Notes under the pieces: generated by a model
Seen by the model: only the letters and a program-made list of their open reading frames with translations
Told to the model about the DNA's origin: nothing
Database searches by the model: none
Program-made: the position numbers and the translations under genes
Shown: positions 4,923 through 24,444 of the stretch, one piece after another
Layout: each line of letters starts with the position of its first letter
Position numbering within the stretch: the first letter of the stretch is position 1
Assembly: GCA_963664405.1 (NCBI GenBank)
Contig: OY761158.1
Location: forward strand, 3,168,001-3,232,000
Source: Thermoanaerobaculia bacterium
Lineage (GTDB): Bacteria > Acidobacteriota > Thermoanaerobaculia > Multivoradales > Multivoraceae
Length of the DNA: 64,000 nt
Reading direction: 5' to 3'

Positions 4923-5879
4923 CCGACGAAGGGGGGATCGATTCGATTTGAGCACAAGCCGGTGCTATTGGACACAGCGACGGCCCTGCTCGACGCAGGC
5001 CGCGGTGGCGTCTTTGTCGACTGCACCCTCGGCCTCGGCGGCCATGCGCTCGAGCTCCTTTCGCGGTTCCCCGATGTCAGCCTCGTCGGTATCGATAGGG
5101 ATGTCGATGCCCTCGAGCTGGCTCGCTCTCGCCTCGCTCCCTTCAGCGATCGAATCGAGATCGTCGAGGGGCGGGCGAGCGAGCTCGACTCACTCCTCGA
5201 TTCGGCAGGTGTCGGCGCCGTCGCCGGGATCTTCGCCGATCTGGGCGTGTCATCGATGCAGATCGATCAGGACTCGAGGGGTTTCAGCCTACGGCGTGAT
5301 GGACCCCTCGACATGCGTATGGGCCGCGGTGACCTGACAGCGGAAGAGATCGTAAATACCTATCCGGAGGTGGATTTGGCAAGGATCATCAAAGACTACG
5401 GCGAGGAGAAGGCAGCTTCGAGGATCGCTCGTGAGCTGATCCGGGTGCGTTCGCAGGCGGCGATTTCGACCACTTTCCAGCTACGAGACGTGGTTCACCG
5501 TGCCAAACGGGGAGGCGTTCGGGATCGCGGCCGGAAGCGCTCGCGCCTCGATCCCGCAACCCTTGTGTTTCAGGCCCTACGCATCGAAGTCAACGCCGAG
5601 CTCGCCGAGCTCGAAGCGCTACTGAAACAGAGTTTGCGGCGGCTTCAAAGTAGCGGAAGGCTGGTCGTGATTTCGTATCACAGTCTCGAGGATCGGCTGG
5701 TCAAGAACATCCTGCGGGATGCCGAACGCGGGGACGTGGACTTGGTCACAGGCCGATCGCGCTCGGAGACACAGATCCTCGAGGTGCTTACCCGAAGACC
5801 GCTGCGGCCCGGAGCCGAAGAGGTTTCCGAGAATCCCCGCGCACGCTCTGCGCGCTTGCGCGCAGCGCGGAGACTCTGA
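4919..5879 (+). CDS. rsmH: 16S rRNA m4C1402 methyltransferase (start region anomalous)
   Basis: HKPVLL, DCTLGLGGH, DLGVSSMQ, GPLDMRM, ISYHSLEDRLVK, NPRARSARLR; ATG 4919 is out of frame by one base in a G6 run. Confidence 0.95.
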
Positions 5880-5881
5880 CC

Positions 5882-6223
5882 TTGCATAGCCCCTATCTCC
5901 GCCGCCGCCCGGTCGAGAACCTGGTGCTGGTGCGTGAACGGGACCGGCGCCGCGCGCGCGAGCTTGCTCGTCTCCTCTTCGGCCTCCTGCCGCTCGCGGC
6001 TGCTCTTCTCAGCTACACCTGGGTGCACACCGAGATCCTTCAGGCTGGTTACTCGGTTCGCTCTCTCGAAGATCGGCTCGAGGTCCTCGATCGCAGCGAG
6101 CGCCGGCTGCGCCTAGAGATAGCTTTTCTCTCCAGCCCGCAGAGAGTGGAGGCCGCGGCGGCGAGCGATCTGGGCATGGTATTCCCGACTCTGGAACAAA
6201 TGGTCTTCGTGGATCAGCGGTGA
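5882..6223 (+). CDS. ftsL: Cell division protein FtsL
   Basis: Single TM segment plus coiled coil, LSSPQRVE..A..DLGM motif, position between rsmH and ftsI. Confidence 0.85.
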   Translation: MHSPYLRRRPVENLVLVRERDRRRARELARLLFGLLPLAAALLSYTWVHTEILQAGYSVRSLEDRLEVLDRSERRLRLEIAFLSSPQRVEAAAASDLGMVFPTLEQMVFVDQR

Positions 6224-7947: not shown

Positions 7948-7953
7948 TTGATC

Positions 7954-9441
7954 ATGGAGGACGACGTGATCTTGCGCGATGTCGTTGCGGATCTGCCGCT
8001 GGTCTGGCAAGCGGCGGCAAAGCGAGGAGCCGAGCTCGAAATCCAAGGTATTTGTCACGACTCTCGCCGGGTCGAGAGCGGAGATCTCTTCGTTACCTGG
8101 AAGGGCGAGAAGTGGGAAGGTGACGCCTTCATCGAGGAAGCCGAGCGTAGGGGTGCGGTAGCCGTGGTCGCCGACTCCTTTTCGGGAGAATCCGAGCTCC
8201 CCTGCCTGTTGGCCGAAGATCCGCGTTCTCTTCTCGGCGCCGTCGCAAGCCGGGTCTACGAACATCCCGATCGTGAGCTCTGCCTGGTAGGCGTTACAGG
8301 GACCAACGGTAAGAGCACGACCGTAGCCCTGGTGGCAGAGATGCTCACCGAGTCCGGGAAGCCGGCAGCCTGCCTTGGCACGCTCGGTTATCGCTTCGGC
8401 TCGCTCGAGCTCGGCGGCGAGCGCACGACTCCCGAGGCCTCCGATCTCTTTCGGATCCTGCGTCGCGTGCGGGATCACGGTGCCGAGGCGGCGGTGATGG
8501 AAGTGTCCTCCCACGCCCTGGTTCAAGGGCGGGTTTCGTGCGCCGGTTTCGACATCGGCGTGTTTCTCAATCTCAGTCGCGATCACCTCGACTTCCATAA
8601 AGATATGGAGCGCTATTACGAGGCCAAGTCACGTCTCTTCGAACTTCTCAATAGCGGAGGCAGGGCCGTTGTCGGAGTCGACGACTCATGGGGAGTCCGC
8701 CTCGCCGAGGCCGTCCCTGGAGCGTTGACCTTCGGTGAGAATGGGGCTGTCCGCTTCGCTTCTCATGATCTGACTCGGAACGGGGTGTCCGGCGTGATCC
8801 AGACCCCGAGAGGCCGTTTTCGTTTCCGCTCCCCGCTCCTCGGCGGCTACAACGCCTCGAACATTCTCGCCGCGGCGGCGGTCGCCGAAGCCCTAGCCCT
8901 ACCTCATCGAAGCGTGGCCAAGGCACTCGAGAGCGTGCGTCCGCTGCCGGGTCGAATGGAGGTCGTCGACGGCGGCCAGCCCTTCGCCGTGATCGTCGAC
9001 TTCGCCCACACCGACGGTGCTCTACGCGCAGCCCTAGGCTCGATGCGCAGCCTGGGCGAGGACCGCCTGGTGGTGGTTTTTGGTTGCGGCGGCGAACGCG
9101 ATCGAGGCAAGCGTGAGCTGATGGGCCACGCCGCCGCGGAGCTGGCGGACTTCGCGATCGCGACCTCGGACAATCCCCGCGGTGAGGAGCCCGAGGCGAT
9201 TCTCGAGGCAGTCGAGAGAGGTATGAGTCAGGTCGCCGATGCGCGATACGAAATAATCCCCGATCGCGCGCGGGCCATCGAGAGAGCGATTGCGATCGCT
9301 CGGCCTGGCTGGAGTGTCCTGATTGCCGGCAAGGGGCACGAGGAGACGCAGATCGTCGGTACTCGACGGATTCCATTTGTTGACCGTGAAGTGGCGATGA
9401 GAGCCCTCGGAGAAGGTTTTGGCTCGGCGTCGATTGAGTGA
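7954..9441 (+). CDS. murE: UDP-MurNAc-tripeptide synthetase (mDAP-adding)
   Basis: GVTGTNGKST, MEVSSH, DHLDFH, DFAHT, DNPR, AGKGHE; start could be GTG 7966. Confidence 0.95.
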   Translation: MEDDVILRDVVADLPLVWQAAAKRGAELEIQGICHDSRRVESGDLFVTWKGEKWEGDAFIEEAERRGAVAVVADSFSGESELPCLLAEDPRSLLGAVASRVYEHPDRELCLVGVTGTNGKSTTVALVAEMLTESGKPAACLGTLGYRFGSLELGGERTTPEASDLFRILRRVRDHGAEAAVMEVSSHALVQGRVSCAGFDIGVFLNLSRDHLDFHKDMERYYEAKSRLFELLNSGGRAVVGVDDSWGVRLAEAVPGALTFGENGAVRFASHDLTRNGVSGVIQTPRGRFRFRSPLLGGYNASNILAAAAVAEALALPHRSVAKALESVRPLPGRMEVVDGGQPFAVIVDFAHTDGALRAALGSMRSLGEDRLVVVFGCGGERDRGKRELMGHAAAELADFAIATSDNPRGEEPEAILEAVERGMSQVADARYEIIPDRARAIERAIAIARPGWSVLIAGKGHEETQIVGTRRIPFVDREVAMRALGEGFGSASIE

Positions 9442-10831
9442 GGCAGCAGCTGCGATGAAAGGCCAACTCATTTCGGGCAGCCCGGATCGCGTTTTCAGCG
9501 GGGCGGCGCTCGACTCTCGGGTGGTTTCCGGAGGCGAGCTCTTCTTTGCTCTCGAGGGAGAGCAGAGTGACGGGCATCGCTTCGTCGCAGACGCGGCCTC
9601 TCGGGGTGCGGTGGGCGCCGTCGTTGAGCGCTTATCGGAGGCTGCGCTTCCCGACGACTTTGGCCTGATTCGAGTTCCCTCGACCTTGGAGGCGCTGTAC
9701 GCTCTCACCCGCCATGTGCGTCAAGCGGTTCCGCGCCAGCTCGTCGGCGTCACCGGATCCGCCGGCAAGACTACGACCAAGACTCTCCTCGCGGCGATGC
9801 TGGCCGAAGAGTTCTCCACCGCTTCGAGCCAGGGCAATTTGAACAATCTCTTCGGCTTCCCGCTGTCTCTCCTCTCCATCCCCGACGACTCGCAGTGGAT
9901 GGTGGCTGAGATGGGCATGTCAGAGCCCGGGGAGCTGGCGGGCGTGAGTCGCCTCGGGCGGCCGGACGTGGTGGTTCTCACCAATGTTGCTCCCGCCCAC
10001 CTCGCCGCTTTTGGAGAGGTTCGGGCGATTGCCGAGGCGAAGGCGGAGATTTTCGAGGGACTAGCTGAGCAGGGGACGGTGGTGGCGAACGCCGATGACC
10101 CGGAGATCGTGCGCATCACACTCCGTCATCGCTCCCGCAGTGGCTGTCGGGTGGCGTGGTGGAGCGCCAAGGGTCAGGCACCGGGTGAAGAACAGCCACA
10201 ACTCCTCGTGCGGAGCCTCGAATGCCCGGTGGCTGGGGAGCCCGGCAGCCGATTCGAGCTCTGGGCCGGAGCCGAGAGCGCCGAGCTGCGGCTTGATCTT
10301 CTCGGCCTTCACAATGTCGAGAACTGCCTTGCGGCGGCGACTGCAGCTCACCTGTGCGGAGTGAGTCTGGAGGCGATCGCAAGAGCGGTGGAGCAGGTGC
10401 AAGCAGCTCCGATGCGAGGCGTGATGGTCGATCTGGGTGTGGGTGCCAGAGTCTACGATGACTCCTACAATTCCAACCCCGAGGCGGTGGCCAGGGCTCT
10501 CACGGCGGCGGCCGACATTCCGGCCGGACGCCACTGGGCGATTCTTGGCGAGATGCTCGAGCTCGGCGAGGGTGCGGAGACCTTCCACCTCGAAGTGGGA
10601 CGTCGGGCTGCGAGCCTCGGTTTCGATCCGGTGGTGGGCGTCGGCGAGCTCGCCCGTGCGCTGGTCGTCGGCGCCGGCGAGAAGGGCGTACGGACCCACT
10701 GGTTCGCGACTGCCGCGGAGGCGGCGGACGCCGCCGAGGACGAGGTTCGCGCCGAAGACCTGCTACTGGTCAAGGGGTCCCGCGGTGTTGGGCTCGAGGT
10801 TGTCGTCGAGCGGCTCAGGAAAGACGGCTAG
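9419..10831 (+). CDS. murF: UDP-MurNAc-pentapeptide ligase
   Basis: GVTGSAGKTTTK, NLNN..G.P, EMGMS, DDSYNSNP, LGEMLELG, KGSRG. Confidence 0.95.
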   Translation: MARRRLSEAAAAMKGQLISGSPDRVFSGAALDSRVVSGGELFFALEGEQSDGHRFVADAASRGAVGAVVERLSEAALPDDFGLIRVPSTLEALYALTRHVRQAVPRQLVGVTGSAGKTTTKTLLAAMLAEEFSTASSQGNLNNLFGFPLSLLSIPDDSQWMVAEMGMSEPGELAGVSRLGRPDVVVLTNVAPAHLAAFGEVRAIAEAKAEIFEGLAEQGTVVANADDPEIVRITLRHRSRSGCRVAWWSAKGQAPGEEQPQLLVRSLECPVAGEPGSRFELWAGAESAELRLDLLGLHNVENCLAAATAAHLCGVSLEAIARAVEQVQAAPMRGVMVDLGVGARVYDDSYNSNPEAVARALTAAADIPAGRHWAILGEMLELGEGAETFHLEVGRRAASLGFDPVVGVGELARALVVGAGEKGVRTHWFATAAEAADAAEDEVRAEDLLLVKGSRGVGLEVVVERLRKDG

Positions 10832-10836
10832 GCAAG

Positions 10837-11910
10837 ATGCTGTATCACCTTCTCTTTCCGCTTCACGAGAGCTACGCGGCTTTCAACGTTTTCCGCTACA
10901 TCACTTTTCGCGCGGCGGGCGCAGCGCTCACAGCCTTGGTTCTCTCGCTGCTGCTCGGGCCGTGGGCCATCCGCACCTTGCGCCGGTTATCAGTAGGGCA
11001 GGAGATACGCGAGGAAGGCCCGAGGGCTCATCAGAGCAAGGCGGGAACGCCGACCATGGGTGGACTGCTCATCCTCTTCTCGCTAACCGTGCCAACTCTA
11101 CTCTGGGCCCAACTGAACAACAGCTACGTGTGGTTGGCAATGACCTCGACCCTGGCGTTTGGCGCCATCGGCTTCACCGACGATTTCCTCAAGGTCAAGC
11201 GGCGCAACAACAAAGGCCTCAGCGCGCGGGTGAAGCTCGCTCTCCAACTTCTCGTCGCCGTAGGCTTGGCCGCAGCCCTATTGGCGATCTCCTTCGACCA
11301 GACATTGGCTTTTCCCTTCCTCAAGAGGCTGGTCGTCGATCTCGGAGTCTTTTACATCGGTGTCGTGGTTTTGGTGTTGGTTTCCAGCACGAACGCGGTG
11401 AACCTGACCGACGGTCTCGACGGCCTGGCCATCGGTGCCACTCTCATCGTCGCCGCCACCTATGCGATCTTCACCTACATCGCCGGACATCGGGTCGTTG
11501 CTGAGTATCTGCAGGTGGTCCATGTGGCCGACGTTGGCGAGGTGGCTGTCTTCTGCAGTGCGCTCGTCGGCGCCAGCCTCGGCTTCCTGTGGTTCAACTG
11601 CCACCCGGCTGAGATGTTCATGGGCGATGTCGGCTCTCTGGCTATCGGTGGCGCGATCGGCACCGTCGCCATTCTTTCCAAGCAGGAGATCCTTCTGCTC
11701 GTTGCCGGGGGCCTGTTCGTACTCGAGGCTCTGTCGGTGATTCTCCAGGTGGGCTCTTTCAAGTCGCGTGGCCAGCGCGTTTTTCGCATGGCTCCGCTCC
11801 ATCATCACTTCGAGCTAAAAGGTTGGGAGGAGCCGAAGGTCATTGTTCGCTTCTGGATTCTGGCCATCCTCTTCGCCCTGCTCAGTCTGTCGACCCTGAA
11901 GCTGCGATGA
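10837..11910 (+). CDS. mraY: Phospho-MurNAc-pentapeptide transferase
   Basis: KAGTPTMGG, DDFLK, NAVNLTDGLDGLA, FMGDVGS, MAPLHHHFE. Confidence 0.97.
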   Translation: MLYHLLFPLHESYAAFNVFRYITFRAAGAALTALVLSLLLGPWAIRTLRRLSVGQEIREEGPRAHQSKAGTPTMGGLLILFSLTVPTLLWAQLNNSYVWLAMTSTLAFGAIGFTDDFLKVKRRNNKGLSARVKLALQLLVAVGLAAALLAISFDQTLAFPFLKRLVVDLGVFYIGVVVLVLVSSTNAVNLTDGLDGLAIGATLIVAATYAIFTYIAGHRVVAEYLQVVHVADVGEVAVFCSALVGASLGFLWFNCHPAEMFMGDVGSLAIGGAIGTVAILSKQEILLLVAGGLFVLEALSVILQVGSFKSRGQRVFRMAPLHHHFELKGWEEPKVIVRFWILAILFALLSLSTLKLR

Positions 11911-13280
11911 GGGTGCCATGGAGCGAGAAGGAGTGGGAGCGGGTGATGGTGTACGGATTGGGTCGCTCGGGGCTGGCCGCTGCCGCCTTCCTTCGCTCGC
12001 GAGGAGTGACTGTGGTCGGAGTTGATCGCCGCGAAGAGCTGGATCTGGGCTCCCTGGCCGGAGACCCGGGCTTGGAGCTGAGGCTGGGAGCGGCGTCGAC
12101 TCTGCCCGACGCGATCGACGCGGTGGTGCTGAGCCCCGGCGTTCCCCGTCAGCGGCCGATGGCCCGAGAGGCAGATGCCCGCGGCATTCCGGTGATCGCC
12201 GAAGTCGAGCTCGCCTTTCCCTTTCTCGACGGGCCGGTACTGGCGATCACGGGAAGTAACGGCAAGAGCACGACAGCGGCTCTGACATCCCAGATTCTTC
12301 GCTGCGCCGGTCTACCGGAAGTTCTCTGTGGCAATTTCGGCGAGCCTCTCTGCTCCAAGATTGACGGAGCGGTGGGGCGGATCTTCATCGTCGAGCTGTC
12401 CAGCTTCCAGCTGGAAAGTGTGCATCTATTCTCTGCTCAGGCCGCGGCTCTGCTGAACATCTCACCCGATCACCTCGATCGCTATCCAGACGTCGCCGCC
12501 TACGCCGCAGCCAAAGCGAGGGTCTTCGAGCGCCAGGGCACCGGTTCTACGGCTGTTCTCAACGCTGAGGATCAGCGGGTCATGGACACCCTGGGCGGAA
12601 TTGAGCATGCCCGTAAGCGCTTCTTCTCGCGCCGCCGCCGGGTGACGGACGGCTGTTATGCGGCGGATGGAGTGGTCGTCGAAGCTGCCCCTGGGAGCGA
12701 TGACGATGAGCTCTTTGCGATCGACGAGATTATTCTCGAGGGGACCCACAATCTCGAGAACGCGATGGCTGCCGCGCTTCTCGCCCGGGCCGTGGGTGCA
12801 CAGCGCCAGAGCGTACGTCGAGGAGTCGGCTCTTTTGCGGGTCTACCCCATCGGATGCAGAAGGTTTCGCAAAGTGGCGGGTTCAGCTGGTACGACGACT
12901 CGAAGGGAACCAATGTCGGTGCTACCCGCGAGTCGCTGGAGGGATTCCCCGGCCATAGCGTTCACCTCATTCTTGGCGGGCAGAGCAAAGGAGCGGACTT
13001 CCTCGAGCTGCGTGGAATCGTGGCGAGTAAGGCCCGAGCTGTGTACCTGATCGGAGAGGCGGCCGACGACATCGCCACCGCTCTCGAAGGTGCCGCACCC
13101 ATCGTTCGTGCCGGCACCTTGGACGAGGCGGTGCGCCAGGCCGCCGCCCGGGCCGAGGGGTCCGAGTCGGTCGTTCTGTCCCCGGCCTGCGCGAGCTTCG
13201 ATCAGTTTGACAGCTTCGAGCACAGAGGACGGCGCTTCCAACAGTTGGTTGCCGAGCTCGACGGAGCCTCAGATGCCTAA
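11907..13280 (+). CDS. murD: UDP-MurNAc-L-Ala--D-Glu ligase
   Basis: GLGRSG, SPGV, ITGSNGKSTT, ELSSFQLE, DHLDRY, DDSKGTN, SPACASFDQF; ATGA overlap with mraY. Confidence 0.96.
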   Translation: MRVPWSEKEWERVMVYGLGRSGLAAAAFLRSRGVTVVGVDRREELDLGSLAGDPGLELRLGAASTLPDAIDAVVLSPGVPRQRPMAREADARGIPVIAEVELAFPFLDGPVLAITGSNGKSTTAALTSQILRCAGLPEVLCGNFGEPLCSKIDGAVGRIFIVELSSFQLESVHLFSAQAAALLNISPDHLDRYPDVAAYAAAKARVFERQGTGSTAVLNAEDQRVMDTLGGIEHARKRFFSRRRRVTDGCYAADGVVVEAAPGSDDDELFAIDEIILEGTHNLENAMAAALLARAVGAQRQSVRRGVGSFAGLPHRMQKVSQSGGFSWYDDSKGTNVGATRESLEGFPGHSVHLILGGQSKGADFLELRGIVASKARAVYLIGEAADDIATALEGAAPIVRAGTLDEAVRQAAARAEGSESVVLSPACASFDQFDSFEHRGRRFQQLVAELDGASDA

Positions 13281-14352
13281 GAAGAGGGCTTTTGACAGGC
13301 CGCTCTTTGCGGTTGTCGTCATCCTTCTGGGACTCGGCGTGGTGATGGTCTATTCGGCCAGTGCCCCGGACGAGGTGAGTGGTGGTGGTCTGGCCCCCTT
13401 CGCCAAGCAGGGATTGGCGTCTGCACTCGGTCTTCTGGCGATGGCGGTAGCGATGCACGTCGACTATCTCCAGCTCAAGCGCCCCGCTGTTCTCTACGGC
13501 ATCGTGCTCGGGGTCCTCGCCCTTCTCGTTGCCGTCCTTTTCGCCTCGCCTTTGAACAACACCAAACGGTGGTTCTTCATAGGCGGCATCTCGGTACAGC
13601 CCTCGGAGCTGGCGAAGATCGCCGTGGTCTTGTTTGTCGCCTATCACCTCGACAGGAAGGCGGAGAGCGTGAATCAGCCGGCGGTGCTGGTTCCCTGTGT
13701 CTCCTTCGGCCTCTTCTGCGTGGTGCTGATCTTGCTTCAACCCGACTTCGGCACTGCTGGGCTGATCCTGGGAATCGCGGGGCTGATGCTCTTTTATGGC
13801 GGCCTGGCCTGGCGCTATGCCCTCTTCGCCTCGCTGATCTCACTTCCCGCACTTTGGTTTCTGATCGTTCGCGTTCCCTACCGGCTAAAGCGCGTTCTCG
13901 CCCACTTGAACCCTGAAAGCGATCCCCTGGGAGCGGGCTTTCAGCCGCTCCAGTCGATGATCGCCGTCGGCTCGGGAGGAGTGCCGGGGCTCGGCCTGGG
14001 GCAGAGTGTGCAGAAGCTCTACTTTCTTCCTTTCGCTGAGTCGGACTTCATCTACTCGATTCTCGCGGAAGAGCTCGGGCTGTTCGGCTCGGTTGGTGTG
14101 CTTCTTCTCTTTTTGACGCTGTTCTGGCGTGGAATCCGTGCCGGCAACCGCGCGCCTGATGAGTTTGGCCGTTTTCTGGCCTGGGGCCTGTCGTCGTTGA
14201 TCCTGGTCCAGGCGCTCATCAATATCAGCGTTTCGGTGGCTCTATTGCCGACCACCGGCATGCCGCTGCCGTTGATCTCCTACGGCGGCTCGTCTCTCGT
14301 AACTACGCTCCTCGCCTGTGGCTTGGTGCTCAATGTTTCCCAGCACGGATGA
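13273..14352 (+). CDS. ftsW: SEDS peptidoglycan polymerase FtsW
   Basis: MVYSAS, RW...QPSELAK, QPDFGT, SDFIYSILAEELG, PLISYGGSS. Confidence 0.95.
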   Translation: MPKKRAFDRPLFAVVVILLGLGVVMVYSASAPDEVSGGGLAPFAKQGLASALGLLAMAVAMHVDYLQLKRPAVLYGIVLGVLALLVAVLFASPLNNTKRWFFIGGISVQPSELAKIAVVLFVAYHLDRKAESVNQPAVLVPCVSFGLFCVVLILLQPDFGTAGLILGIAGLMLFYGGLAWRYALFASLISLPALWFLIVRVPYRLKRVLAHLNPESDPLGAGFQPLQSMIAVGSGGVPGLGLGQSVQKLYFLPFAESDFIYSILAEELGLFGSVGVLLLFLTLFWRGIRAGNRAPDEFGRFLAWGLSSLILVQALINISVSVALLPTTGMPLPLISYGGSSLVTTLLACGLVLNVSQHG

Positions 14353-14356
14353 TGAT

Positions 14357-15430
14357 GTGGGCAAGAGGGCACTCTTGGCGGGCGGCGGCAGCGGGGGTCA
14401 TGTATTCCCAGCTCTGGCAGTCGCCGACGAGCTCGTGGAGCGAGGATGGCAAGTGAGCTTCGCCGGCACGGCAGAGGGTATGGAGGCGAGACTCGCGGCC
14501 TCGCGGGGCTTCGACTTTCACCCTCTCGCCGCATTGGCGGTACGTGGCCGCGGCCTGGGCCAGCGCTGGCGCGCCGCGAGAGTTGTGATGCGCTCGACCC
14601 TTCAGGCCCGCAACTTGGTACGGCGATTGGGGGCGGTTGCAGTGGTCGCTACCGGTGGCTATGCCTGTGTACCGGCGGCCCTGGGTGGCTTCCTGGCCCG
14701 GCGTCCGCTGTTGTTGGTAGAGCCGAACGCGATGCCGGGTCTGGCGAATCGATTTCTGTCGTTCTTCGCCAAACAGGCGGCAGTGGCTTGGGACGAGACC
14801 GGAAACCATCTGCACTGTCCTACCGAGCGCACCGGGGTGCCTGTGCGCCGCGAATTCTTTGCTATCGAGGCGCCGACGACTTTGAGCGGAGAGATTCGTC
14901 TCTTGGTGCTGGGAGGCAGCCAGGGCGCACAGGCGCTCAACCGAGTCATCCCCGGAGTGCTCGAGACGCTGTCGCAGACTCTGGACCTTCGCATGCGCGT
15001 CGTTCACCAAGCCGGGCGAGGGAAAGTCGAGGAAACGAGGGCGGGCTACCAAGCCGGCCGAGTCGACGCCGAGGTCGTGGCCTTTCTCGAAGACGTTCCG
15101 ACCGCAATGTCGGAATCGGATCTCGTTCTCTCTCGCGCCGGTGCGATCACACTGGCGGAGATCTGTGCTGCCGGACGACCCGCGCTGCTCTTTCCGCTCG
15201 CACTCGCGGGCGCCCATCAGCTCCAGAACGCCCGTGCCCTCGAGCGGGTCGGTGCGGCCGAAGTAGTGGAGCCGGAGGGCCTGGAGCCGGAGCGTCTAGT
15301 TCAGGTGCTCACTGGACTCCTCGAGGACTCGCGCCTTCTGGAGATGGCTCACGCCTCCCGCGCATTGGCAGCGCCGGATGCCGCGAGCCGAATCGCCGAC
15401 CAGTTGGAAGGAATGGTGGGGGGGCGATGA
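14357..15430 (+). CDS. murG: Lipid II GlcNAc transferase
   Basis: GGGSGGHVFP, TGGY, EPNAMPGLANR, GGSQGA, SRAGA. Confidence 0.95.
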   Translation: MGKRALLAGGGSGGHVFPALAVADELVERGWQVSFAGTAEGMEARLAASRGFDFHPLAALAVRGRGLGQRWRAARVVMRSTLQARNLVRRLGAVAVVATGGYACVPAALGGFLARRPLLLVEPNAMPGLANRFLSFFAKQAAVAWDETGNHLHCPTERTGVPVRREFFAIEAPTTLSGEIRLLVLGGSQGAQALNRVIPGVLETLSQTLDLRMRVVHQAGRGKVEETRAGYQAGRVDAEVVAFLEDVPTAMSESDLVLSRAGAITLAEICAAGRPALLFPLALAGAHQLQNARALERVGAAEVVEPEGLEPERLVQVLTGLLEDSRLLEMAHASRALAAPDAASRIADQLEGMVGGR

Positions 15431-16815
15431 TGTTTCGGCACTTTGCCGGTCTGTCCCATGTCCACTTCGTGGGGGTAGGTGGAGCGGGCATGTGCGGCAT
15501 CGCCGAGGTGCTCCTGGACTATGACCTCGAGGTGAGCGGCTCGGACCTCGCCTCGAATGACACCACGTCGCGCTTGGCCGACCTAGGAGTAACGGTTTTC
15601 GAGGGCCACGACGCAGCCCATGTCGATACCGCGGACCTGGTCGTGATCTCCTCGGCGGTTCCGGCGGAGAACCCCGAAGTCAGAGCCGCGGTGGAACGGG
15701 GGATCCCGGTCGTACGCCGCGCCGAGATGCTGGCCGAGCTGATGCGCTTGAAGTACGGCATCGCGGTGGCCGGCTCCCACGGCAAGACCACGACCACATC
15801 GTTGGTTGGTCTTCTGCTCACTGAGGGAGGGCTCGACCCGACGGTGATCGTCGGCGGGCGATTGCGGGTCACTGGCACCGGTGCCCGGCTTGGTAAGAGT
15901 GATTACCTGGTAGCCGAGGCAGATGAGTTCGACCGTAGCTTCCTTAGTCTGGCGCCCATCATCGCGGTGCTGACCTCGATTGACAGGGAGCATTTGGACA
16001 CCTACCGCGATATGGAAGATATTCGGAGCGCGTTCGTCACCTTCGCGCAGAAGGTGCCCTTCTTCGGTCAGGTCATCGTGTGTCTCGACGACGCAGAGAT
16101 TCAGGAGATCCTGCCCCGATTGAAGGATCGCCGCGTAGTCACTTACGGCCTCTCGCCCCAGGCGGAGCTGGCGGCGGTCGATCTCGAGCTCGATGCCGAC
16201 GGTAGCTCATTCACCGTCAGGTCCCTCAAAGAGGGAGTGCTGGGTCGCATTCGACTGCCGATGCCGGGCTTGCACAACGTCAGGAACGCCCTCGCTGCGA
16301 TCGCTGTCGGCCTCGGTCTCGGTCTCGACTTCGACTCCTTCGCCACTTCCCTCGCGGGCTTCGGCGGCGTGCATCGACGCTTCGAGCGGCTCGGAGAGTG
16401 GTTGGGCGCTACCGTTATCGACGACTACGCGCACCACCCCACCGAAGTAGCGGCCACTCTCGAGGCAGCTCGGCAAGTCTTCCCCGAATCTCGCATACAC
16501 GTGGTTTTCCAGCCCCATCTCTTCAGCCGCACGCGTGACTTCGCGGACGACTTCGGCAGGGCCCTGATGGCGGCCGACGCGGCGGTGGTTACCGAGATCT
16601 ATGCATCTCGTGAGTCGCCGCTCACGGGTGTAGACGGTGAGCTCGTGGTGGCTGCCGCGCGCAGTTGTGGGCACAGGAACGTTCGCTTCTGTGGCGAGTG
16701 GCGTAATGCGGTTGAGATTCTCCGCTCGAGTGTCAAGCCCGGTGACGCGGTACTCACGCTCGGAGCCGGTGACGTCTATTTGCTTGCGCGCGAACTGGTG
16801 GAGGAGTCGTCGTGA
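15427..16815 (+). CDS. murC: UDP-MurNAc--L-Ala ligase
   Basis: HFVGVGGAGM, GSHGKTTTTS, EADE, DDYAHHPTE, FQPH; ATGA overlap with murG. Confidence 0.96.
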   Translation: MMFRHFAGLSHVHFVGVGGAGMCGIAEVLLDYDLEVSGSDLASNDTTSRLADLGVTVFEGHDAAHVDTADLVVISSAVPAENPEVRAAVERGIPVVRRAEMLAELMRLKYGIAVAGSHGKTTTTSLVGLLLTEGGLDPTVIVGGRLRVTGTGARLGKSDYLVAEADEFDRSFLSLAPIIAVLTSIDREHLDTYRDMEDIRSAFVTFAQKVPFFGQVIVCLDDAEIQEILPRLKDRRVVTYGLSPQAELAAVDLELDADGSSFTVRSLKEGVLGRIRLPMPGLHNVRNALAAIAVGLGLGLDFDSFATSLAGFGGVHRRFERLGEWLGATVIDDYAHHPTEVAATLEAARQVFPESRIHVVFQPHLFSRTRDFADDFGRALMAADAAVVTEIYASRESPLTGVDGELVVAAARSCGHRNVRFCGEWRNAVEILRSSVKPGDAVLTLGAGDVYLLARELVEESS

Positions 16816-17648
16816 GGATCGCTTCGGGCGAGTTCCTTCGTTTCAGCCATCCGCGTCGACGGCGGCGCTTGCATCCGGTAGCTCGCGACTTCGGGCGGGC
16901 TCTTCGCGTTGTGGCGGTGCTGGTCCCGCTGATGATCTTTGTCTACTGGTTGATTGCCGCCGAGACCTTTGCCCTCGCGGAGATCGAGATCAAGGAGAAC
17001 CCGCGAGTTCCCGCTTCGTGGATGCGGCGGGCGATCGAAGCCGAGCTTGGCGGCAATCTGGTGATCCTGCCGCTCAGCCGCGTGCGTGAGCGCCTTTCCG
17101 GCCACCCCTGGCTGGCGAATGTCGAGGTTCACAAGGAGCTTCCGGATCGCCTTTTCGTCGAGGTCGATGAGCGGCTGGCAGTGGCCGTTCTCGAAGCTGA
17201 AGACGGTGCCTACTTCATCGATGGCTCGGGTCGGCGTATCGCGTCGGTTCGACCCGGAGAGAGTGCGGTGGGGCTGTTGCGACTTGCGAGCGGCGGAAGC
17301 GGATCAGAAGTTCCTGCGCCGCTGGCGCTTCAGGAGAGGTTGTGTCTCGAGAAGGCGATTCAGCTGAGTCGCGCACTCGCCGACGCGGATCTCGAGAATT
17401 GGAGATCGAAGCTTCTCCGTATCGAAGTGGTGGGAGACGACGACTTTCGGCTCTTTGCCGAGAATCTTCCCTTTCCGGTGCTGGTGCGCTCGGCCAGTGT
17501 GGTGGCGGGGGCACGAGTGCTTGACGCTCTCCTGCCCGAGATTCTTGCTCGAACGAGCTCGGTGTACGAGGTGGATCTTCGCTTTCAGGGGCGAGTAGTG
17601 GTCAGACCTGAGATGAATGGCGATCGGCGACAACAGAAGGAGACGTGA
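16812..17648 (+). CDS. ftsQ: Cell division protein FtsQ/DivIB
   Basis: N-terminal TM, POTRA-like region (HPWLANVEVHKELPDRL), C-terminal VDLRF; directly before ftsA. Confidence 0.88.
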   Translation: MRIASGEFLRFSHPRRRRRLHPVARDFGRALRVVAVLVPLMIFVYWLIAAETFALAEIEIKENPRVPASWMRRAIEAELGGNLVILPLSRVRERLSGHPWLANVEVHKELPDRLFVEVDERLAVAVLEAEDGAYFIDGSGRRIASVRPGESAVGLLRLASGGSGSEVPAPLALQERLCLEKAIQLSRALADADLENWRSKLLRIEVVGDDDFRLFAENLPFPVLVRSASVVAGARVLDALLPEILARTSSVYEVDLRFQGRVVVRPEMNGDRRQQKET

Positions 17649-17653
17649 GGGAT

Positions 17654-18888
17654 ATGCCCAAGCCTGAAAAATTTATTGTCGGAATCGATATCGGTTCTTC
17701 GAAAGTAGCCGTCTTGATCGCTATGCCGGGGGAGAACGGCGAGTTGGAGGTCGTAGGCAAGGGGCTCTCTCCCAATCGGGGGACCCGTCGCGGCAATATC
17801 GTCAACGTCGAGACGACGGTCGAGGCCTTGAAGCAGGCCTGCGAGGAGGCGGAGGTGATGGCCGGAGTCGAGATCTCCGAGGCCTTCGTCGGCGCGGCAG
17901 GGCCCGACGTACGCAGCGTGAACTCGAGAGGAATGGTCTCGGTTGCCCGCAAGGACCGCGAAATTACGCGTCAGGACATCGAGAGGGTGTTGGAGGCGGC
18001 CCAATCCGCGGCGTTGCCCTCGGATCGCGACATTCTCCACGCCATTCCCCAGGAGTTCGTGGTCGACGACCAGGGCGGGATAACGGATCCGCTGGGGATG
18101 CTCGGGAGTCGGCTCGAGGTCATGGTCCACTTGGTGACAGGTCACTCGACTCAATCGAAGACCCTGCTGACCTGCGTGAACCGAGCCGGGATCGAGGTGG
18201 TGGAGATCGTTTTCGAGCCGCTGGTGACCGCCCTTGCGGTGATGAGTCCCGACGAGCGCGAGCTTGGGGCCCTGCTGGTGGACATCGGGTCAGGCACCAC
18301 GGGCTATGCCTACTACTGCAACTCCGAGGTTCTCCACAGTGCAGTTCTTCCCATCGCGGCCGGCCACTTCACCAATGACTTGGCGATGGTCCTACGCACA
18401 CCCTTCGCCGAGGCAGAGGCCATCAAGGCGAAGAACGGCTGTTGTCTGGCGAGCCTTGTCGACTACGACGAAGGGATCTCGGTGCCGAGTGTCGGTGGCG
18501 GGGGCGCCAGGGTGGTGGCCCGACGCGAGTTGACCGAGATTCTGCAGCCGAGGGCGGAGGAGATTTTTCATCTGATTCGCGAAGACATCGCGAAGAGTTT
18601 GGGCGAGCCGAGCCTACGGGGTGGGATTGTGCTCACCGGCGGAGGGGCTCAGCTGGATGGGCTGATAGAGGTGGCGGAGCAGGTTTTCGATGCTACCGCC
18701 CGAGCGGGACTGCCCGGCGGTCTTGGAGGGCTGGTGGATGTCATTCATAGCCCGATCTGGTCGGCGGCTGCAGGTCTCCTTATTCACGGACAGGGAGTGT
18801 TGGCGAGTCGGCCGCAGCAGGGGAATCGAGGTTTCGGCGTACGGGCCATGGTGGGCAGTTTGCGAGGAATGTTCTCGGACCTGCATAC
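17654..18888 (+). CDS. ftsA: Cell division protein FtsA (no stop codon; reads through into agmatinase)
   Basis: GIDIGSSKV, PLGMLGSRLE, VDIGSGTT, VLTGGGAQL, C-terminal amphipathic helix (VRAMVGSLRGMFSDL). Confidence 0.95.
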
Positions 18889-18889
18889 G

Positions 18890-19768
18890 TTGACCGTCAA
18901 TGACGCCAAGGGGTCTCAGCCGTTCTTCTCTCTCGATCCAGAGCACAGCGACCTCGAGACCGCCGCCGCGGTACTTCTACCGATCCCCTACGAGCGCACG
19001 GCGAGCTGGCGGAAAGGTACTGCAGCAGGACCCGAGGCCATCCGCGAGGCCTCGGCGCACGTCGAGCTATGGGATCTCGACACCAACAGCGAGCCCTATC
19101 GCCATGGCATCGCTCAGGAGCAGGCGCTTAACTTTCAGGGTCCGGCCGACGAGCTCGCCAAGAGCGTCGAAGAACGAGTCGGGGGGGTCCTCGACCGCCG
19201 CCAGATCCCGATCGTGCTCGGCGGCGATCACTCGGTCTCCATCGGAGCGATCGCGGCAACTGCTAGGCGCTTCCCCAAGCTATCGGTGCTACAGATCGAC
19301 GCCCACGCCGACACTCGAGAGACTTATCAAGGATCGACCCACAGCCACGCCTGCGTCATGGCTCGGGCGCGGGAGCTCTGTCCCATCGTGCAAGTGGGTT
19401 TGCGCAGCGCCGACAAGGAGGAGCTGCCCGCGCTCGAAGCTGGCCGCGTGTTCTGGGCGAATGACATCGCTCGCGATCGCCGGGCGACCTGGATTCACAA
19501 GGCGGTCGAGCAGCTCAGCGAGGAGGTCTACGTCACCATCGACATCGACGCCTTCGACCCTGCCATAGTGCCAGCCACTGGAACCCCCGAGCCCGGCGGC
19601 CTCGACTGGTATCAGGTGAACGACCTCCTGGCCGCGACGGCTCGCCAAAGTCGCGTCGTGGCCTTCGACGTCGTCGAGCTGATGGGGGGACATGCGCCTT
19701 CGGCGTTCACCGCCGCCAAGCTCATCTACCGTTTCTTGGCGGAGATCCTGAGGGAGAAAGGGAAGTAA
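18890..19768 (+). CDS. speB: Agmatinase (ureohydrolase), in frame with ftsA
   Basis: GTAAGPEAIREAS, GGDHSVS, DAHAD, DIDAFDP, ATGTPEPGGL; candidate own start TTG 18890. Confidence 0.9.
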   Translation: MTVNDAKGSQPFFSLDPEHSDLETAAAVLLPIPYERTASWRKGTAAGPEAIREASAHVELWDLDTNSEPYRHGIAQEQALNFQGPADELAKSVEERVGGVLDRRQIPIVLGGDHSVSIGAIAATARRFPKLSVLQIDAHADTRETYQGSTHSHACVMARARELCPIVQVGLRSADKEELPALEAGRVFWANDIARDRRATWIHKAVEQLSEEVYVTIDIDAFDPAIVPATGTPEPGGLDWYQVNDLLAATARQSRVVAFDVVELMGGHAPSAFTAAKLIYRFLAEILREKGK

Positions 19769-19892
19769 GCAGTAAGCAGTAAGAAGTAAAGGCAGGGAGC
19801 GGAGAGAAGGCAGTATTACTTCTTACTGACTACTGTTTACTTCTTTACTCCGGCTCCCCTTCCCTGTCTTCACTGCTTACTGCTTACTCCTC
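19760..19892. repeat. Imperfect inverted repeat of AGTAAGC/GCTTACT heptamers between convergent genes; possible bidirectional terminator
   Basis: AGTAAGC-AGTAAGC-AGTAAG on the left arm and CTGCTTACTGCTTACT on the right; both TAA stop codons lie in the heptamers. Confidence 0.65.
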
Positions 19893-20935
19893 CCCTCAAG
19901 CACAGCGGCGAAGATCAAGGGCGCGACGATCGTCGCATCTGACTCGATCAAAAACATCGGAGTCTCCGCATCGAGCTTTCCCCAGGTGATCTTCTCGCTC
20001 GGGTAGGCACCCGAGTACGAACCGTAGCTGGTGGTCGAATCGGAGATCTGACAGAAGTAGCCCCAGTAAGGACAATCGCGGCGTAGATCCTGCCGGATCA
20101 TCGGCACTACACAGATCGGAAAATCGCCCGCTATGCCCCCCCCGATCTGGAAGAAGCCCATAGTTCGCACTGTCTGTTCCCGGGAGACGTCGAGATCGTC
20201 ACCGAGATCGTTTGAAGGAGTGGCCGCGAGTCTCTCGAGATCGGCAAGCGGTTTCTCCATCGTACGAGCCGCGTACCACTCGGCGAGAGCCGCCATCGTC
20301 TCTACGCCGGTCCGCATCGCTTCGTGGCTTTCGAGCGAGCCATCGATCACTCTGGCCGCAAAGACATTTCCGAGCGTCGAGTCCTCCCAGCCTGGAACAA
20401 AGAGAGGCAGATCGCGCTCTTGAGCAGCCACCAGCCAGCTGTCGCGAGGGTCGATCTGATAGCTGCTCTCGAGCGCGCCACTCGCGAGCAATTGGTAGAG
20501 GTGCTCGTGGGGGAAGCACCTCCGGCCTGCACTCTCTGCTGCTTTCCACAGCTCGAGGAGCGGTCCCTCCACTGCCCTAAAAGCCTCCTCCTCAGGAATG
20601 CAGGTGTCGGTGACCCGATTCAGCCCCTTCCGCGCCAGCTCCTTCTCGTCTCCAGCCGTCAGGTTGCGCCACGCTGGTACCCGAACATAGTGATCGTGGG
20701 CAACGAGGTTGAACAGATCTTCTTCCAGGTTCGCTCCGGTGCACGAGATCGCGTGAACTTTCTCGCGGCGGATCATCTCCGCCAAGGACACTCCAAGCTC
20801 AGCCGTAGACATCGCACCGGCGACCGCCATCAACATCTCTCCGCCCGAGGCAAGATGTTCGATGTAGCCCTCGGCCGCCTCCCTCAAAGTGGCCGCGTTG
20901 AAGTGGAGATAGTTACGCCGTAGGAATTCCCTCAT
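19877..20935 (-). CDS. Deoxyhypusine synthase-like protein (probable homospermidine synthase)
   Basis: GAMSTAELG, TGANLEED, GWEDSTLGN, QIGGGIAGDFPICVVP, GSYSGA..EKITWGK (catalytic Lys position). Confidence 0.9.
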   Translation of the reverse strand: MREFLRRNYLHFNAATLREAAEGYIEHLASGGEMLMAVAGAMSTAELGVSLAEMIRREKVHAISCTGANLEEDLFNLVAHDHYVRVPAWRNLTAGDEKELARKGLNRVTDTCIPEEEAFRAVEGPLLELWKAAESAGRRCFPHEHLYQLLASGALESSYQIDPRDSWLVAAQERDLPLFVPGWEDSTLGNVFAARVIDGSLESHEAMRTGVETMAALAEWYAARTMEKPLADLERLAATPSNDLGDDLDVSREQTVRTMGFFQIGGGIAGDFPICVVPMIRQDLRRDCPYWGYFCQISDSTTSYGSYSGAYPSEKITWGKLDAETPMFLIESDATIVAPLIFAAVLEGRSKQ

Positions 20936-21060
20936 CTAGGCCCTTTACTCTCAGCGCCCAGCCCAACGTTCCACTCGGTAAGCTCACCCAGCCGTCTCCG
21001 AAGCCAGGCGTTCGTCCGTTCCTCGGACGGACGCCACGCGCCGTCCTCGGCGCCAGACAA

Positions 21061-21099
21061 CAACAAAGGTCGGGGAATGGTACACACCATTCCCCGGCC
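21061..21099 (-). terminator. Intrinsic terminator after ftsZ
   Basis: 14-bp stem GGCCGGGGAATGGT-gtgt-ACCATTCCCCGACC followed by TTTGTTG on the minus strand, right after the ftsZ stop. Confidence 0.7.
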
Positions 21100-22422
21100 T
21101 CAGTCCATCTGCTTGCGCAGCACGGTAGGGATGTCGAAATCATCGACACCTGACCAATTCGGACCGAAGCCCCCCTTGTCCTTGTCGTGGTTGTGCGCCA
21201 GTACTTTGCGGTAGAACGGAAGCTCCTCCTCAGCCTCGGCTTCGGCCTCCAGCTCTTCAGGCGGCCGCACCTCTGGAGCGCCGGCCAACTCCATCTGATC
21301 GAGCGGTTCAGCTTCCTTGACCGGAGCCTCCTCCTGTGACCGTGGCCACATCGAGGCCGGTTCGTCATCCTCCTCGGAGCGAAGAACACTGGCAGAGGGC
21401 GAGATCTCCGGCTCGAACGCCTGGTCTCCGTCCTTGAAGCCGGTGGCGATCACCGTGACTTTGATCTCGTCGGCCATTTCATCGTCGATGACCAAACCGG
21501 AGATGATGTTCGCGTCGGGATCGACCATGTCGGAAATGGTCCGCGCCGCCTCCGCCACTTCGTGCAAAGTGATGTCGCCGCCGCCGGTAATGTTGATGAG
21601 CACACCGCGGGCGCCCTGGATGCTGGTCTCTTCCAGCAGAGGAGACGAGACTGCAGCCTGCGCGGCCTCGATCGCTCGACTCTCTCCCTTGGCCAGGCCA
21701 GTGCCCATGAGCGCGATACCCATGCCGCTCATGATCGTGCGCACATCTGCGAAGTCCGCATTGACCTCACCAGGGATGGTAATCAGGTCACTGATACCCT
21801 GAACGCCCTGACGCAAGACATCGTCGGCGATGAGGAAGGCCTCGGCGAGGGGAGTCCCGCGGTCGACGAAGTTCAGAAGACGTTCGTTGGGAATAGCGAT
21901 CACCGTATCGACCGACTCGCGAAGCTCGTCGAGCCCCTTCGCCGCCAGGTGCATGCGCCTACGTCCTTCGAACGAGAAGGGTTTGGTGACCACGGCAACG
22001 GTGAGAGCACCGACTTCCGCAGCCAACGAGGCGATGACCGTGATCGCGCCGGTGCCGGTTCCGCCGCCCAGGCCGGCGGCGAGAAAGATCATGTCGGAGC
22101 CATCGAGAAGCTCGAGTATGCGCTCCGAGTCCTCCAGTGCAGCCTTGCGACCGATCTCGGGATCAGAGCCCGCGCCCAGGCCGCGAGTGATCAGCTTCCC
22201 CAATTGAAGCCGCGTCGGCGCGCGGCACTTACTGAGAGCCTGGGTGTCTGTATTAGCTGCAATGAACTCGACGCCGTTGAGCTTGGAGTCGATCATTCGA
22301 TTCACCGCGTTGCCGCCACCACCACCCACACCAATGACCTTGATGTCGGCAGGAAGAACCTCCCGGTTCTCCATGCTGATGGCCAATCCTGCGTCACTCT
22401 TCTGCTCGTCGAATAGGATCAT
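21100..22422 (-). CDS. ftsZ: Cell division protein FtsZ
   Basis: [31 protein letters not shown]-terminal [11 protein letters not shown]; AAAGGGG RBS before ATG 22422. Confidence 0.98.
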
Positions 22423-22485
22423 CCGCCAACCCCTTTCTCGGGCTTTATTCTCATGTCTACGATTCACTGAGCTCTATTTGCCGGC

Positions 22486-24444
22486 CTAGAGTATCTCTTC
22501 CGCCTCTAAATAGGTGTAGCCCTTCAGCTCAGCTTCGTAGTGGTCGACAATGGCTTGAGCTTCTTCTTCGCTGAGCCGGCCGCTGGCGACCGCCCGCTGT
22601 GTCGTAGCCCGAAGCCGCGATCGGAGAGCGTTTACGTCGTACTGGAGATAAGAGAGGACTTCGGCCGCAGTGTCCCCGGCGACGGCCTCGTCGATCACCA
22701 CTTGTCCCTCATCGCCGAGACTCAGGTGTACGACGTGGGTGTCGCCGAAGAGGTTGTGAAGATCGCCGAGGGTCTCCTGGTAGGCGCCGGTGAGGAAAAC
22801 TCCGAGGTAGTATTCCTCGCCCGGGCGGAGCTCGTGGAGGGGTAGTGTGCGCTCGATGTCGCGTAGGGCGACGAAGCGATCGATCTTGCCGTCGGAGTCG
22901 CAGGTCATATCGGCAAGGACCCCGCGCCGCGTCGGCTTCTCGTCGAGTCGATGGATCGGAGCGATGGGGAAGAGCTGATTGATTGCCCAGGAGTCCGGAA
23001 GAGATTGGAAAACGGAAAAGTTGCAGAAGTAGATGTCGGCCAAGATGCGCTCCAGCTCTTCGAGCTCTTCCGGCATCGAGGGCATGCTCTGGGCGAGTCG
23101 ATAGATCGCGGCGCAGGTGGTCCAGAAGAGGCGCTCACAAAAGCCTCGCCACGTGAGTGACAGATAGCCGAGGTTGAAGAGATTCAGCGCTTGCTCATAA
23201 GCCTGGAGCGCTCCGTGGTAGCACTCGACGGCGCGGCGCTCCTCGAGTTGGCGGTGAGACTCGATGAGGTCCAAAACGGGTTGGGCGATCTCCGCTTGGC
23301 CGATCTCCTCGAGATCCTCAGGTACGGCGAAGTCGTCGAGCCCCGATCTACCCACGACATTGACGATGAGCAGGCTCTGGTAGGCCGCGATGGCGCGACC
23401 CGACTCGGTGACGATCGTCGGATGGGGGATCCTCTTCTCGTTGCACACTGACGTGACTCGATAGACGACCTCACTGGCGTACTCGCTCAGGCTGTAATTC
23501 CTCGATGAAGGGAAGTTGGTCTTGGACCCGTCGTAGTCCACGGCGAGGCCGCCACCGACGTCGAGATAGCGCAGTCCCTCGGCCCCCATCCGTACCAGCT
23601 CGGCGTAGATGTGCGTGAGCTCACCGATCGCATCCTTGACCCGTCGGATGTCGTGCAATTGGCTGCCGACGTGACAGTGCAGCAGCTCGAGGCAGTCCTC
23701 CAGCCCGCGCGAGCGGAGCCGCTCCGCGAGCTCGATGACCTCGCTGACAAAGAGACCGAATTTGGACTTGACCCCCGACGAACCCCGCCACCGGCCGGCG
23801 CCTTCGCTCGATAGCTTGACCCTGACGCCGAGACGAGGGCGAAGGCCCTGCTCCTCGGCGTTACGCAGGATGAGCTCGAGCTCGTCGAGCTTTTCTACCA
23901 CCGGGACGATGTCGCGCCCGAGCTTTTGCGCCAGCGTTACCGTCTTTATGTAGTCGTTGTCTTTGAACCCGTTGCAGAGAATCAGCCTGGGCCCTGGATC
24001 ATCGGCCATGGCCATGACCGCCAGCAGCTCCGGCTTCGAGCCCACTTCCAGGCCGAAGCCGTAGGCCCGGCCGTAGCGGTAGACCTCCTCGACCACGGCG
24101 CGCTGTTGGTTGACCTTGATCGGATAGACCGCCAGGTAGCCGCCCTGATACGCATTTGCTTCGATCGCGGTATCGAAGGCGTCGCGAAGCGCGCCGAGTC
24201 GATGGCTCAGCAGATTGGAGAAGCGCAACAAGATCGGTGCAGTGGTGCCTTGCTGGGCGAGACTTTCGATGATTTCGAGTACGTCGATCTCACGTTGGTC
24301 GTCTTTCTCCGGCCGAACGACGAGATGACCGTCGCTCCTGATGGCGAAATAGCCCTGACTCCACCCGTCGATCTGATAGAGCTCGGCGGCGTCCTCGGGT
24401 GTCCAGGACCGCTCTAGTGGCGAGCCTCTCGCGATAGTGCCCAC
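22486..24444 (-). CDS. speA: Biosynthetic arginine decarboxylase
   Basis: YPIKVNQ (PLP lysine), GLEVGSKPEL, HCHVGSQ, DVGGGL, ESGRA, TCDSDG, GAYQETLGDLHNLFG, GYTYLE. Confidence 0.96.
   Translation of the reverse strand: MGTIARGSPLERSWTPEDAAELYQIDGWSQGYFAIRSDGHLVVRPEKDDQREIDVLEIIESLAQQGTTAPILLRFSNLLSHRLGALRDAFDTAIEANAYQGGYLAVYPIKVNQQRAVVEEVYRYGRAYGFGLEVGSKPELLAVMAMADDPGPRLILCNGFKDNDYIKTVTLAQKLGRDIVPVVEKLDELELILRNAEEQGLRPRLGVRVKLSSEGAGRWRGSSGVKSKFGLFVSEVIELAERLRSRGLEDCLELLHCHVGSQLHDIRRVKDAIGELTHIYAELVRMGAEGLRYLDVGGGLAVDYDGSKTNFPSSRNYSLSEYASEVVYRVTSVCNEKRIPHPTIVTESGRAIAAYQSLLIVNVVGRSGLDDFAVPEDLEEIGQAEIAQPVLDLIESHRQLEERRAVECYHGALQAYEQALNLFNLGYLSLTWRGFCERLFWTTCAAIYRLAQSMPSMPEELEELERILADIYFCNFSVFQSLPDSWAINQLFPIAPIHRLDEKPTRRGVLADMTCDSDGKIDRFVALRDIERTLPLHELRPGEEYYLGVFLTGAYQETLGDLHNLFGDTHVVHLSLGDEGQVVIDEAVAGDTAAEVLSYLQYDVNALRSRLRATTQRAVASGRLSEEEAQAIVDHYEAELKGYTYLEAEEIL

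Follow-up and report, generated by a model that had tools for sequence, protein, structure and literature searches.

A probable recent 3.6-kb inversion in an Acidobacteriota chromosome that detached ftsZ from ftsA and left ftsA fused in frame to speB

We analyzed a 64,000-nucleotide stretch, here called the window, from a Thermoanaerobaculia bacterium (Acidobacteriota; GenBank assembly GCA_963664405.1, contig OY761158.1, positions 3,168,001 to 3,232,000; G000:C1:3168001-3232000), whose genome is a single contig of 6.78 Mb that is 97% complete. The subject is the pair of division genes ftsA and ftsZ, which is among the most conserved of bacterial gene neighbours and is split in this chromosome. 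The gene order in the window is ftsQ> ftsA> speB> <dhs <ftsZ <speA (arrowheads give the direction of reading), and beyond speA come an acyl-CoA dehydrogenase gene, which is split, and argS. A Pfam scan, from whose families the gene names were read, placed the canonical division and cell wall (dcw) order from mraZ through ftsA on the plus strand; the upstream part of this cluster, from which ftsZ is now detached, spans 4440..17648 and contains mraZ (4440-4922), rsmH, ftsL, ftsI, murE, murF, mraY, murD, ftsW, murG, murC and ftsQ (16812-17648). Next on the same strand are the ftsA part of a fused open reading frame (ORF) at 17645..18884, with a start at GTG 17645 or ATG 17654, and speB (18890..19768), encoding a putative agmatinase of the arginase family, for which the native TTG start at 18890 and the gene limits were supported by the Arginase domain and by N-terminal comparison with loci L055 and L122. 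The minus strand carries dhs, a deoxyhypusine-synthase-like gene according to Pfam (19877..20935), ftsZ (21100..22425; 441 amino acids from ATG 22425, a start chosen from the MILFD starts of relatives) and speA, the biosynthetic arginine decarboxylase gene (22486..24444), which ends ..EAEEIL-stop. Thus placed, ftsZ lies 60 nt downstream of speA and on the strand opposite to the dcw cluster. The segment that appears to have been inverted measures 3606 bp (18885..22490) and comprises speB, dhs, ftsZ and a 65-nt stretch (22426..22490, minus strand) that was formerly the ftsA-ftsZ spacer and now provides the 60 nt between the speA stop and the ftsZ ATG. At the left junction lies ATAC (18885..18888, plus strand), a copy that the sequence and its in silico reconstruction derive from the speA/speB boundary, and at the right junction lies GTAT (22491..22494, plus strand), the second and inverted copy of ATAC, contiguous with speA.

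At the left junction, ftsA has no stop codon, and its frame continues as ..GSLRGMFSDL-HT-LTVNDAKG.. to the speB stop at 19766-19768. The resulting ORF (17645-19768) encodes 707 amino acids from GTG or 704 from ATG, and contains the SHS2_FTSA, FtsA and Arginase Pfam domains in one protein. In its FtsA portion, matched by PF02491 and PF14450, both the SHS2 and the FtsA domain are intact, and so are the linker at the C-terminal side and the amphipathic ..GSLRGMFSDL segment, which aligns with the ends of FtsA from relatives; the last Leu and the stop are lost, and nothing else. Behind it comes a 294-residue extension composed of His-Thr and the whole SpeB, so that the native TTG start of speB is now an internal Leu codon. 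The SpeB portion matched PF00491 (E = 4e-64) over profile positions 2-277 of 280, at fusion residues 441-697, and this corresponds to a full-length arginase fold. The Pfam-defined FtsA and arginase domains are separated by 63 residues (378-440), with the amphipathic segment in the middle of this stretch. The fusion was the sole FtsA-length match and the sole arginase-family gene in the genome, and no match to SepF or to the agmatine deiminase family was obtained in this 97%-complete sequence. When a protein collection was searched, no FtsA-arginase fusion was found among the best 120 of 8000 scored candidates (388-1238 amino acids). This collection contains the SpeA of the genome and lacks its fused FtsA-SpeB ORF as well as a separate FtsA or SpeB, suggesting, as one possible reason, that the fused ORF received no protein call in the annotation by the depositor. 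At the right junction, the speA stop is TAG 22486-22488, formerly the stop codon of ftsA, and the last residue of SpeA would have changed from R to L, from a former end that presumably read ..EAEEIR-stop.

The 4-bp inverted pair, ATAC at 18885-18888 and GTAT at 22491-22494, is weak evidence when taken alone, as a match of this length is expected in 1 of 256 cases at fixed positions, and the positions were picked after inspection. However, when 18885-22490 was re-inverted in silico, the FtsA of the window ended ..GMFSDLL-stop, and the alternative flips of 18885-22494 and 18889-22494 did not give the FSDLL-stop end. Since the re-inversion generates the FtsA end found in 20 of 20 relatives and in a close homolog, P0001 (both described below), the ATAC/GTAT match stands above chance. 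Moreover, turning the segment back and removing one ATAC gave a speA that ends ..GAG ATA CGT TGA and overlaps the speB TTG. The junctions are exactly reciprocal, and both ancestral gene boundaries come back intact when the segment is re-inverted. On the ftsA side the break lies after C18884 and just before the T of TC TAG, and the speA/speB side gives ATAC to both junctions; the left junction has 0 bp of microhomology and the right one has 1 bp (C). No inverted pair flanking the segment was present among the 25 longest of 367 inverted pairs, and no element copies were found at either junction, where gene ends are joined directly. A mobile hairpin-repeat family that occurs elsewhere in the genome was considered as a source of the breaks, and neither junction sequence showed a copy of it. 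The Pfam-scanned ORFs (at least 110 amino acids) between 193 and 41221 included no recombinase or transposase domain; those at 4404-4955, 28870-29742 and 35720-36958 had no Pfam match of any kind. An inversion mediated by an insertion sequence or transposon was considered and is not supported, as the gene ends are joined directly without inverted element copies.

To place this arrangement among related bacteria, 30 relatives that share the family or the order of this bacterium, but not its genus, were searched with FtsZ; 29 gave a full-length match, and up to 18 kb around ftsZ was compared in 20 of these. The order ftsQ-ftsA-ftsZ was collinear in all 20, and in all 20 FtsA ended ..DLL-stop. 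The protein collection provided P0001, an FtsA of 411 amino acids encoded on a 2.32-Mb contig, which is 99% identical to that of the window, with 3 substitutions, and ends ..GMFSDLL. Other FtsA relatives, at ~70-82% identity, carry Acidobacteriota names, some of them Thermoanaerobaculia. The gene order in the window is derived and recent, because all 20 relatives are collinear and an FtsA that is 99% identical has kept the normal FSDLL end. For the other boundary, the order speA>speB> <dhs was observed in relative G022 (locus L122) and in the metagenome locus L055, and in the latter the speA TGA overlaps the speB ATG, in parallel with the TTGA overlap reconstructed for the window. A search of metagenome contigs with the DHS protein gave 79 loci, with a best identity of 69% and no contig of the same species. 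An earlier note on this DNA, made from the letters alone, had described the same gene order and the same ATAC and GTAT positions and read them as a recent inversion, and both the description and the reading agree with these data, including the comparison with sister genomes that it proposed, in which the present order was absent from every one of the 20. Its conjecture that a staggered break duplicated ATAC and that GAC CTG CTC TAG was the former end of ftsA reproduces the family-wide FtsA end exactly, and the overlap between the speA stop and the speB start that it predicted has a direct parallel in L055. Its remark that all genes were still open is correct for the frames, but it hides the loss of the ftsA stop and the fusion to speB.

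The junctions were also sought in public sequencing runs. At least part of the 7.5-kb stretch was contained in 20 of 24 listed runs, and 5 contained all the sampled words. The word share was 1.00 in X2, X4 and X5, a value that by itself does not count in favour of the junctions. Logan contigs from four runs of four studies, X1 (P1), X3 (P2), X8 (P3) and X9 (P4), were then compared with positions 17000-24500. In X1, a single contig (record 1, 8848 nt, word depth 7.8) covered the entire interval with 0 other letters and 0 gaps, and the same was observed in X3 (record 9, 8851 nt, depth 5.81). Either X1 or X3 may be the source of the deposited assembly, and the other run is then independent. As both junctions are thus present in reads from two studies, they are not an assembly artefact; furthermore, if both orientations occurred at assembled depth, contigs would be expected to end at the junctions, and those of X1 and X3 continue through them, with no second orientation detectably assembled. 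The pieces from X8 bridge neither junction (record 22 ends at 22486), and the RNA runs X20 and X22-X24 contain little or none of the stretch.

The seawater metagenome X9, with pieces that share ~98-100% identity with the window, gave a different picture. Positions 113-554 of record 31 (554 nt) fit 22050-22491, and its 112 further letters do not continue along the window; positions 1-404 of record 32 (440 nt) fit 22491-22894 with 0 differences, and its 36 further letters likewise do not follow on in the window. Both records stop fitting at exactly 22491, although each contains, in nearly identical form, the window sequence that should come next in the other; the X9 strain therefore does not have the end of speA next to the ftsZ spacer. 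Position 22491 is also where a mismatch is expected for the un-inverted ftsA-ftsZ and speA-speB joins, allowing for one shared C. In addition, the depth of X9 in the bin 18757-19007 was 3.23, compared with 3.28 calculated if the leftover letters are the last 112 nt of ftsA and the first 36 nt of speB. The junction is polymorphic among close strains.

Collectively, these data make it very probable that the locus underwent a real, evolutionarily recent, balanced 3.6-kb two-break inversion, end-joined with a filled-in 4-nt stagger, in the chromosome of this uncultured member of the Acidobacteriota. The earlier order would have been ftsQ> ftsA> ftsZ> dhs> <speB <speA. A first and flush break would have fallen 2 nt before the ftsA TAG stop (..GAC CTG C/TC TAG, with the slash at the break), and a second one, staggered by 4 nt (ATAC), at the overlap of the speA stop and the speB start (..GAG ATA CGT TGA). 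Both overhangs would then have been filled in and the segment religated in reverse, so that one junction kept ATAC and the other received GTAT. The most likely route would be non-homologous end joining (NHEJ) of two double-strand breaks by Ku and LigD. Genes for Ku (PF02735, 162.8 bits) and LigD (phosphoesterase, ligase and Prim-Pol domains) lie adjacent on opposite strands at G000:C1:4252839-4255931 (L141, L142), ~1.07 Mb from the window, and form a complete bacterial NHEJ pair; this pathway is therefore available in the genome and may have served in the inversion. A type IIA topoisomerase cut would be an equally good source of the ATAC break. The event belongs to a known kind of rearrangement, the end-joined micro-inversion, and involves no new mechanism; its interest lies in the effect on ftsA and ftsZ.

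Several points weigh against this explanation or restrict it. Contigs drop rare variants, and a minority orientation in X1 or X3 could escape detection. The independence of these two runs is known as two studies and two organism labels, and no further. The ancestral order in X9 is deduced from two contig ends and a depth sum. P0001 is known as a protein alone, and the un-inverted DNA of a close strain was not read directly; the genome that encodes P0001 is expected to encode a stand-alone SpeB, and none more than 67% identical was found in the protein collection (160-511 amino acids). A single ATAC at the former speA/speB boundary is itself part of the reconstruction, and NHEJ is one of several ways to this junction signature.

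The alternatives concern whether the inversion is real, how it arose, whether it is programmed and how old it is. It is very unlikely that the 3.6-kb piece was misoriented in the deposited assembly and that the organism really carries ftsA-ftsZ. An in-frame fusion of the sole FtsA with an enzyme looks unhealthy, the neighbouring acyl-CoA dehydrogenase gene, split by a frameshift, could hint at consensus errors, and the absence of the FtsA and SpeB of this genome from the protein collection, where its SpeA is present, would fit as well. However, the independently built Logan contigs of X1 and X3 match the window across the two junctions with 0 differences, at the depths given above, mis-joins do not produce exactly reciprocal junctions with a 4-bp duplication, and the 25 longest of the 367 inverted pairs include no junction repeat that could confuse an assembler. 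The assembly chimera that the earlier note had allowed for has thus lost most of its probability, now that the same junctions are found in two runs of two studies. A different route to the same inversion is possible, although unlikely: illegitimate joining after a type IIA topoisomerase had cut at ATAC, or microhomology template switching. Type IIA topoisomerases (gyrase, topo IV) cleave with a 4-nt 5' stagger, which the duplication equals exactly, and the 0-1 bp of junction microhomology is in line with either process; yet the stagger is present at one break and not at the other, and the usual products of replication template switching are duplications or triplications, not a balanced inversion. 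Nothing in the sequence discriminates between these routes, and Ku and LigD, which are present, would be needed also to seal topoisomerase breaks.

A programmed reversible switch, or inverton, that toggles ftsZ between two operons would account for the short inverted ATAC/GTAT ends and for frames that are all open in the present state. We nevertheless regard it as extremely unlikely: a 4-bp repeat is too short for a recombinase site, no recombinase domain was detected in the scanned ORFs from 193 to 41221, contigs of X1 and X3 run unbroken through the junctions with the other orientation not detectably assembled, and ftsA lacks a stop codon in the present state. The absence of a recombinase and of a long inverted repeat, together with the single assembled orientation in X1 and X3, also upholds the earlier judgement that such a switch is unsupported. 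As for an old arrangement typical of a wider clade, nothing was found in its favour, and we give it next to no credence; the 20 relatives are collinear for ftsQ-ftsA-ftsZ, P0001 at 99% identity has a normal FtsA end, and the best 120 of the 8000 candidates include no FtsA-arginase fusion.

With a recent end-joined inversion as the preferred explanation, the geometry of the locus suggests that ftsZ has left the dcw transcript for that of speA, where the speA promoter would drive it, and that it has been cut off from promoters within the dcw genes and would have escaped MraZ/dcw control, as the earlier note proposed. No terminator-like site was found in the 60-nt speA-ftsZ spacer, and a promoter scan of 17500-25000 gave one sigma-70-like site, compared with 1.9 expected by chance, and none near either junction. 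The ftsZ gene keeps an AAGGGG-type ribosome-binding stretch, like its relatives, and 65 nt of native upstream DNA are left. On the other side, the Shine-Dalgarno-like GGAAGAG stretch formerly in front of the speB TTG has been lost to speB, whose product is probably synthesized only within the fusion. The cumulative GC skew placed the window ~0.45 Mb from the putative origin, with the plus strand as the leading strand, and ftsZ and dhs would now face replication. The fusion presumably still supplies FtsA function, because it is the sole FtsA in the genome and the lineage recurs in samples; this recurrence, in runs of at least two studies, suggests that the FtsA-SpeB chimera is at least tolerated. 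A stronger proposal is that the flip represents a tolerated or useful rewiring, in which the sole FtsA works inside a 77-kDa chimera with its helix buried and the dosage of ftsZ is set by the arginine-decarboxylase promoter. We consider this improbable; if true, division in the lineage would be coupled to polyamine metabolism.

Other features of the region were noted in passing. Within the inverted segment, a strong terminator-like hairpin (21071..21096, minus strand) with 11 pairs, of which 7 are G-C, separates dhs from ftsZ and comes directly after the stop of the latter. The spacer between the convergent speB and dhs (19762..19891) holds a hairpin and is composed of 7-nt repeats (AGTAAGC in 3.7 copies and its complement in 2.4 copies) that form inverted repeats of 17-31 nt; the spacer is unaffected by the flip. 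This heptamer array differs between strains, because one X9 contig has an extra GAAGTAA behind 19761. In the dcw cluster, the 789-amino acid ORF at 14446-16815 (plus strand) corresponds to MurC; the Mur ligase domains start at residue 338, and the long N-terminal extension of the ORF overlaps murG (14318-15430) in another frame and is probably spurious. Beyond speA, the acyl-CoA dehydrogenase gene (24697-25850, minus strand) is split into two overlapping ORFs, one at 25236-25850 with the N domain and a portion of the middle one, and the other at 24697-25239 with the C-terminal domain. The frame of the downstream ORF is open upstream of its ATG (..SGFLIDKGTPGFNVLRRIPMIGG..), with the frameshift near a G-run at ~25290, and the split reflects either a genuine pseudogene or an error in the consensus.

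The surroundings of ftsZ also differ among the genomes compared. In G008 and G001, ftsZ is directly followed by a convergent argS, and in G013 the two genes are 2.9 kb apart; the window has a dhs-speB-speA-acyl-CoA dehydrogenase block between ftsZ and argS (19877-25850, compared with loci L021, L032 and L033). None of the genes of the block was matched in the ftsZ-argS interval of G013, and SpeB was not found at E <= 1e-40 in G008, G001 or G013. The block looks like a lineage-specific insertion downstream of ftsZ, with one of the inversion breakpoints inside it.

The locus is of interest as a case where the conserved ftsA-ftsZ pair is split by an event with both junctions readable to the base, and as one of the rare cases in bacteria of a staggered-break, end-joining signature that is familiar from inversions in eukaryotes. 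It also offers a natural experiment, a sole FtsA with a 294-residue extension (two linker residues and an enzyme) behind its membrane-targeting helix, and a case of ftsZ separated from the promoters inside the dcw operon. If the fusion is made and working, it bears on the need for a terminal FtsA helix and on the importance of coupled expression of FtsZ and FtsA. The reach of these considerations is limited to that of one lineage-specific accident.

Hin/Gin/Fim-type invertons are site-specific invertible DNA switches, and the locus resembles them in that a segment lies between inverted sequences and its flip would change which promoter reads which gene; it differs in the lack of a detected recombinase, the 4-bp repeat, the one assembled orientation per sample and the lost stop codon. 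According to the consulted portion of PMC8871954, the conserved dcw cluster ends ftsQ-ftsA-ftsZ. The order from mraZ to ftsA is the same here, whereas ftsZ is inverted, lies on the opposite strand at a distance of 3.6 kb and is read from the speA side, a placement seen in 0 of the 20 relatives. A full-text literature search for an inversion of ftsZ or ftsA in the dcw cluster gave no such case in the portions of text retrieved; in PMC8871954 the term inversion refers to a setting of a reconstruction program. For Escherichia coli FtsA, an extract of PMC4252000 describes the membrane-targeting amphipathic helix as essential and C-terminal. The linker and the amphipathic ..GSLRGMFSDL segment are kept in our fusion, but the helix is internal here, with the 294-residue extension behind it.

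With regard to mechanism, the closest parallel is that of the Drosophila inversions reported by Ranz et al. 2007 (PMC1885836, as far as the sections at hand describe them), where the breakpoints likewise have no repeats or transposons and the sequence between paired staggered nicks is duplicated in inverted form at the junctions after fill-in and non-homologous end joining. The model in these sections expressly permits a stagger at one break alone. The duplications in Drosophila range from 46 bp to ~1.9 kb, in contrast with the 4 bp found here, in a bacterium and around a 3.6-kb piece. Similarly, in the inversions end-joined after two Cas9 cuts, as presented in excerpts of PMC4524425 and PMC10709867, the fragment is religated in reverse and junction letters arise from the fill-in of a stagger; those inversions originate from engineered breaks in eukaryotic cells, whereas the one in this chromosome would be a natural event.

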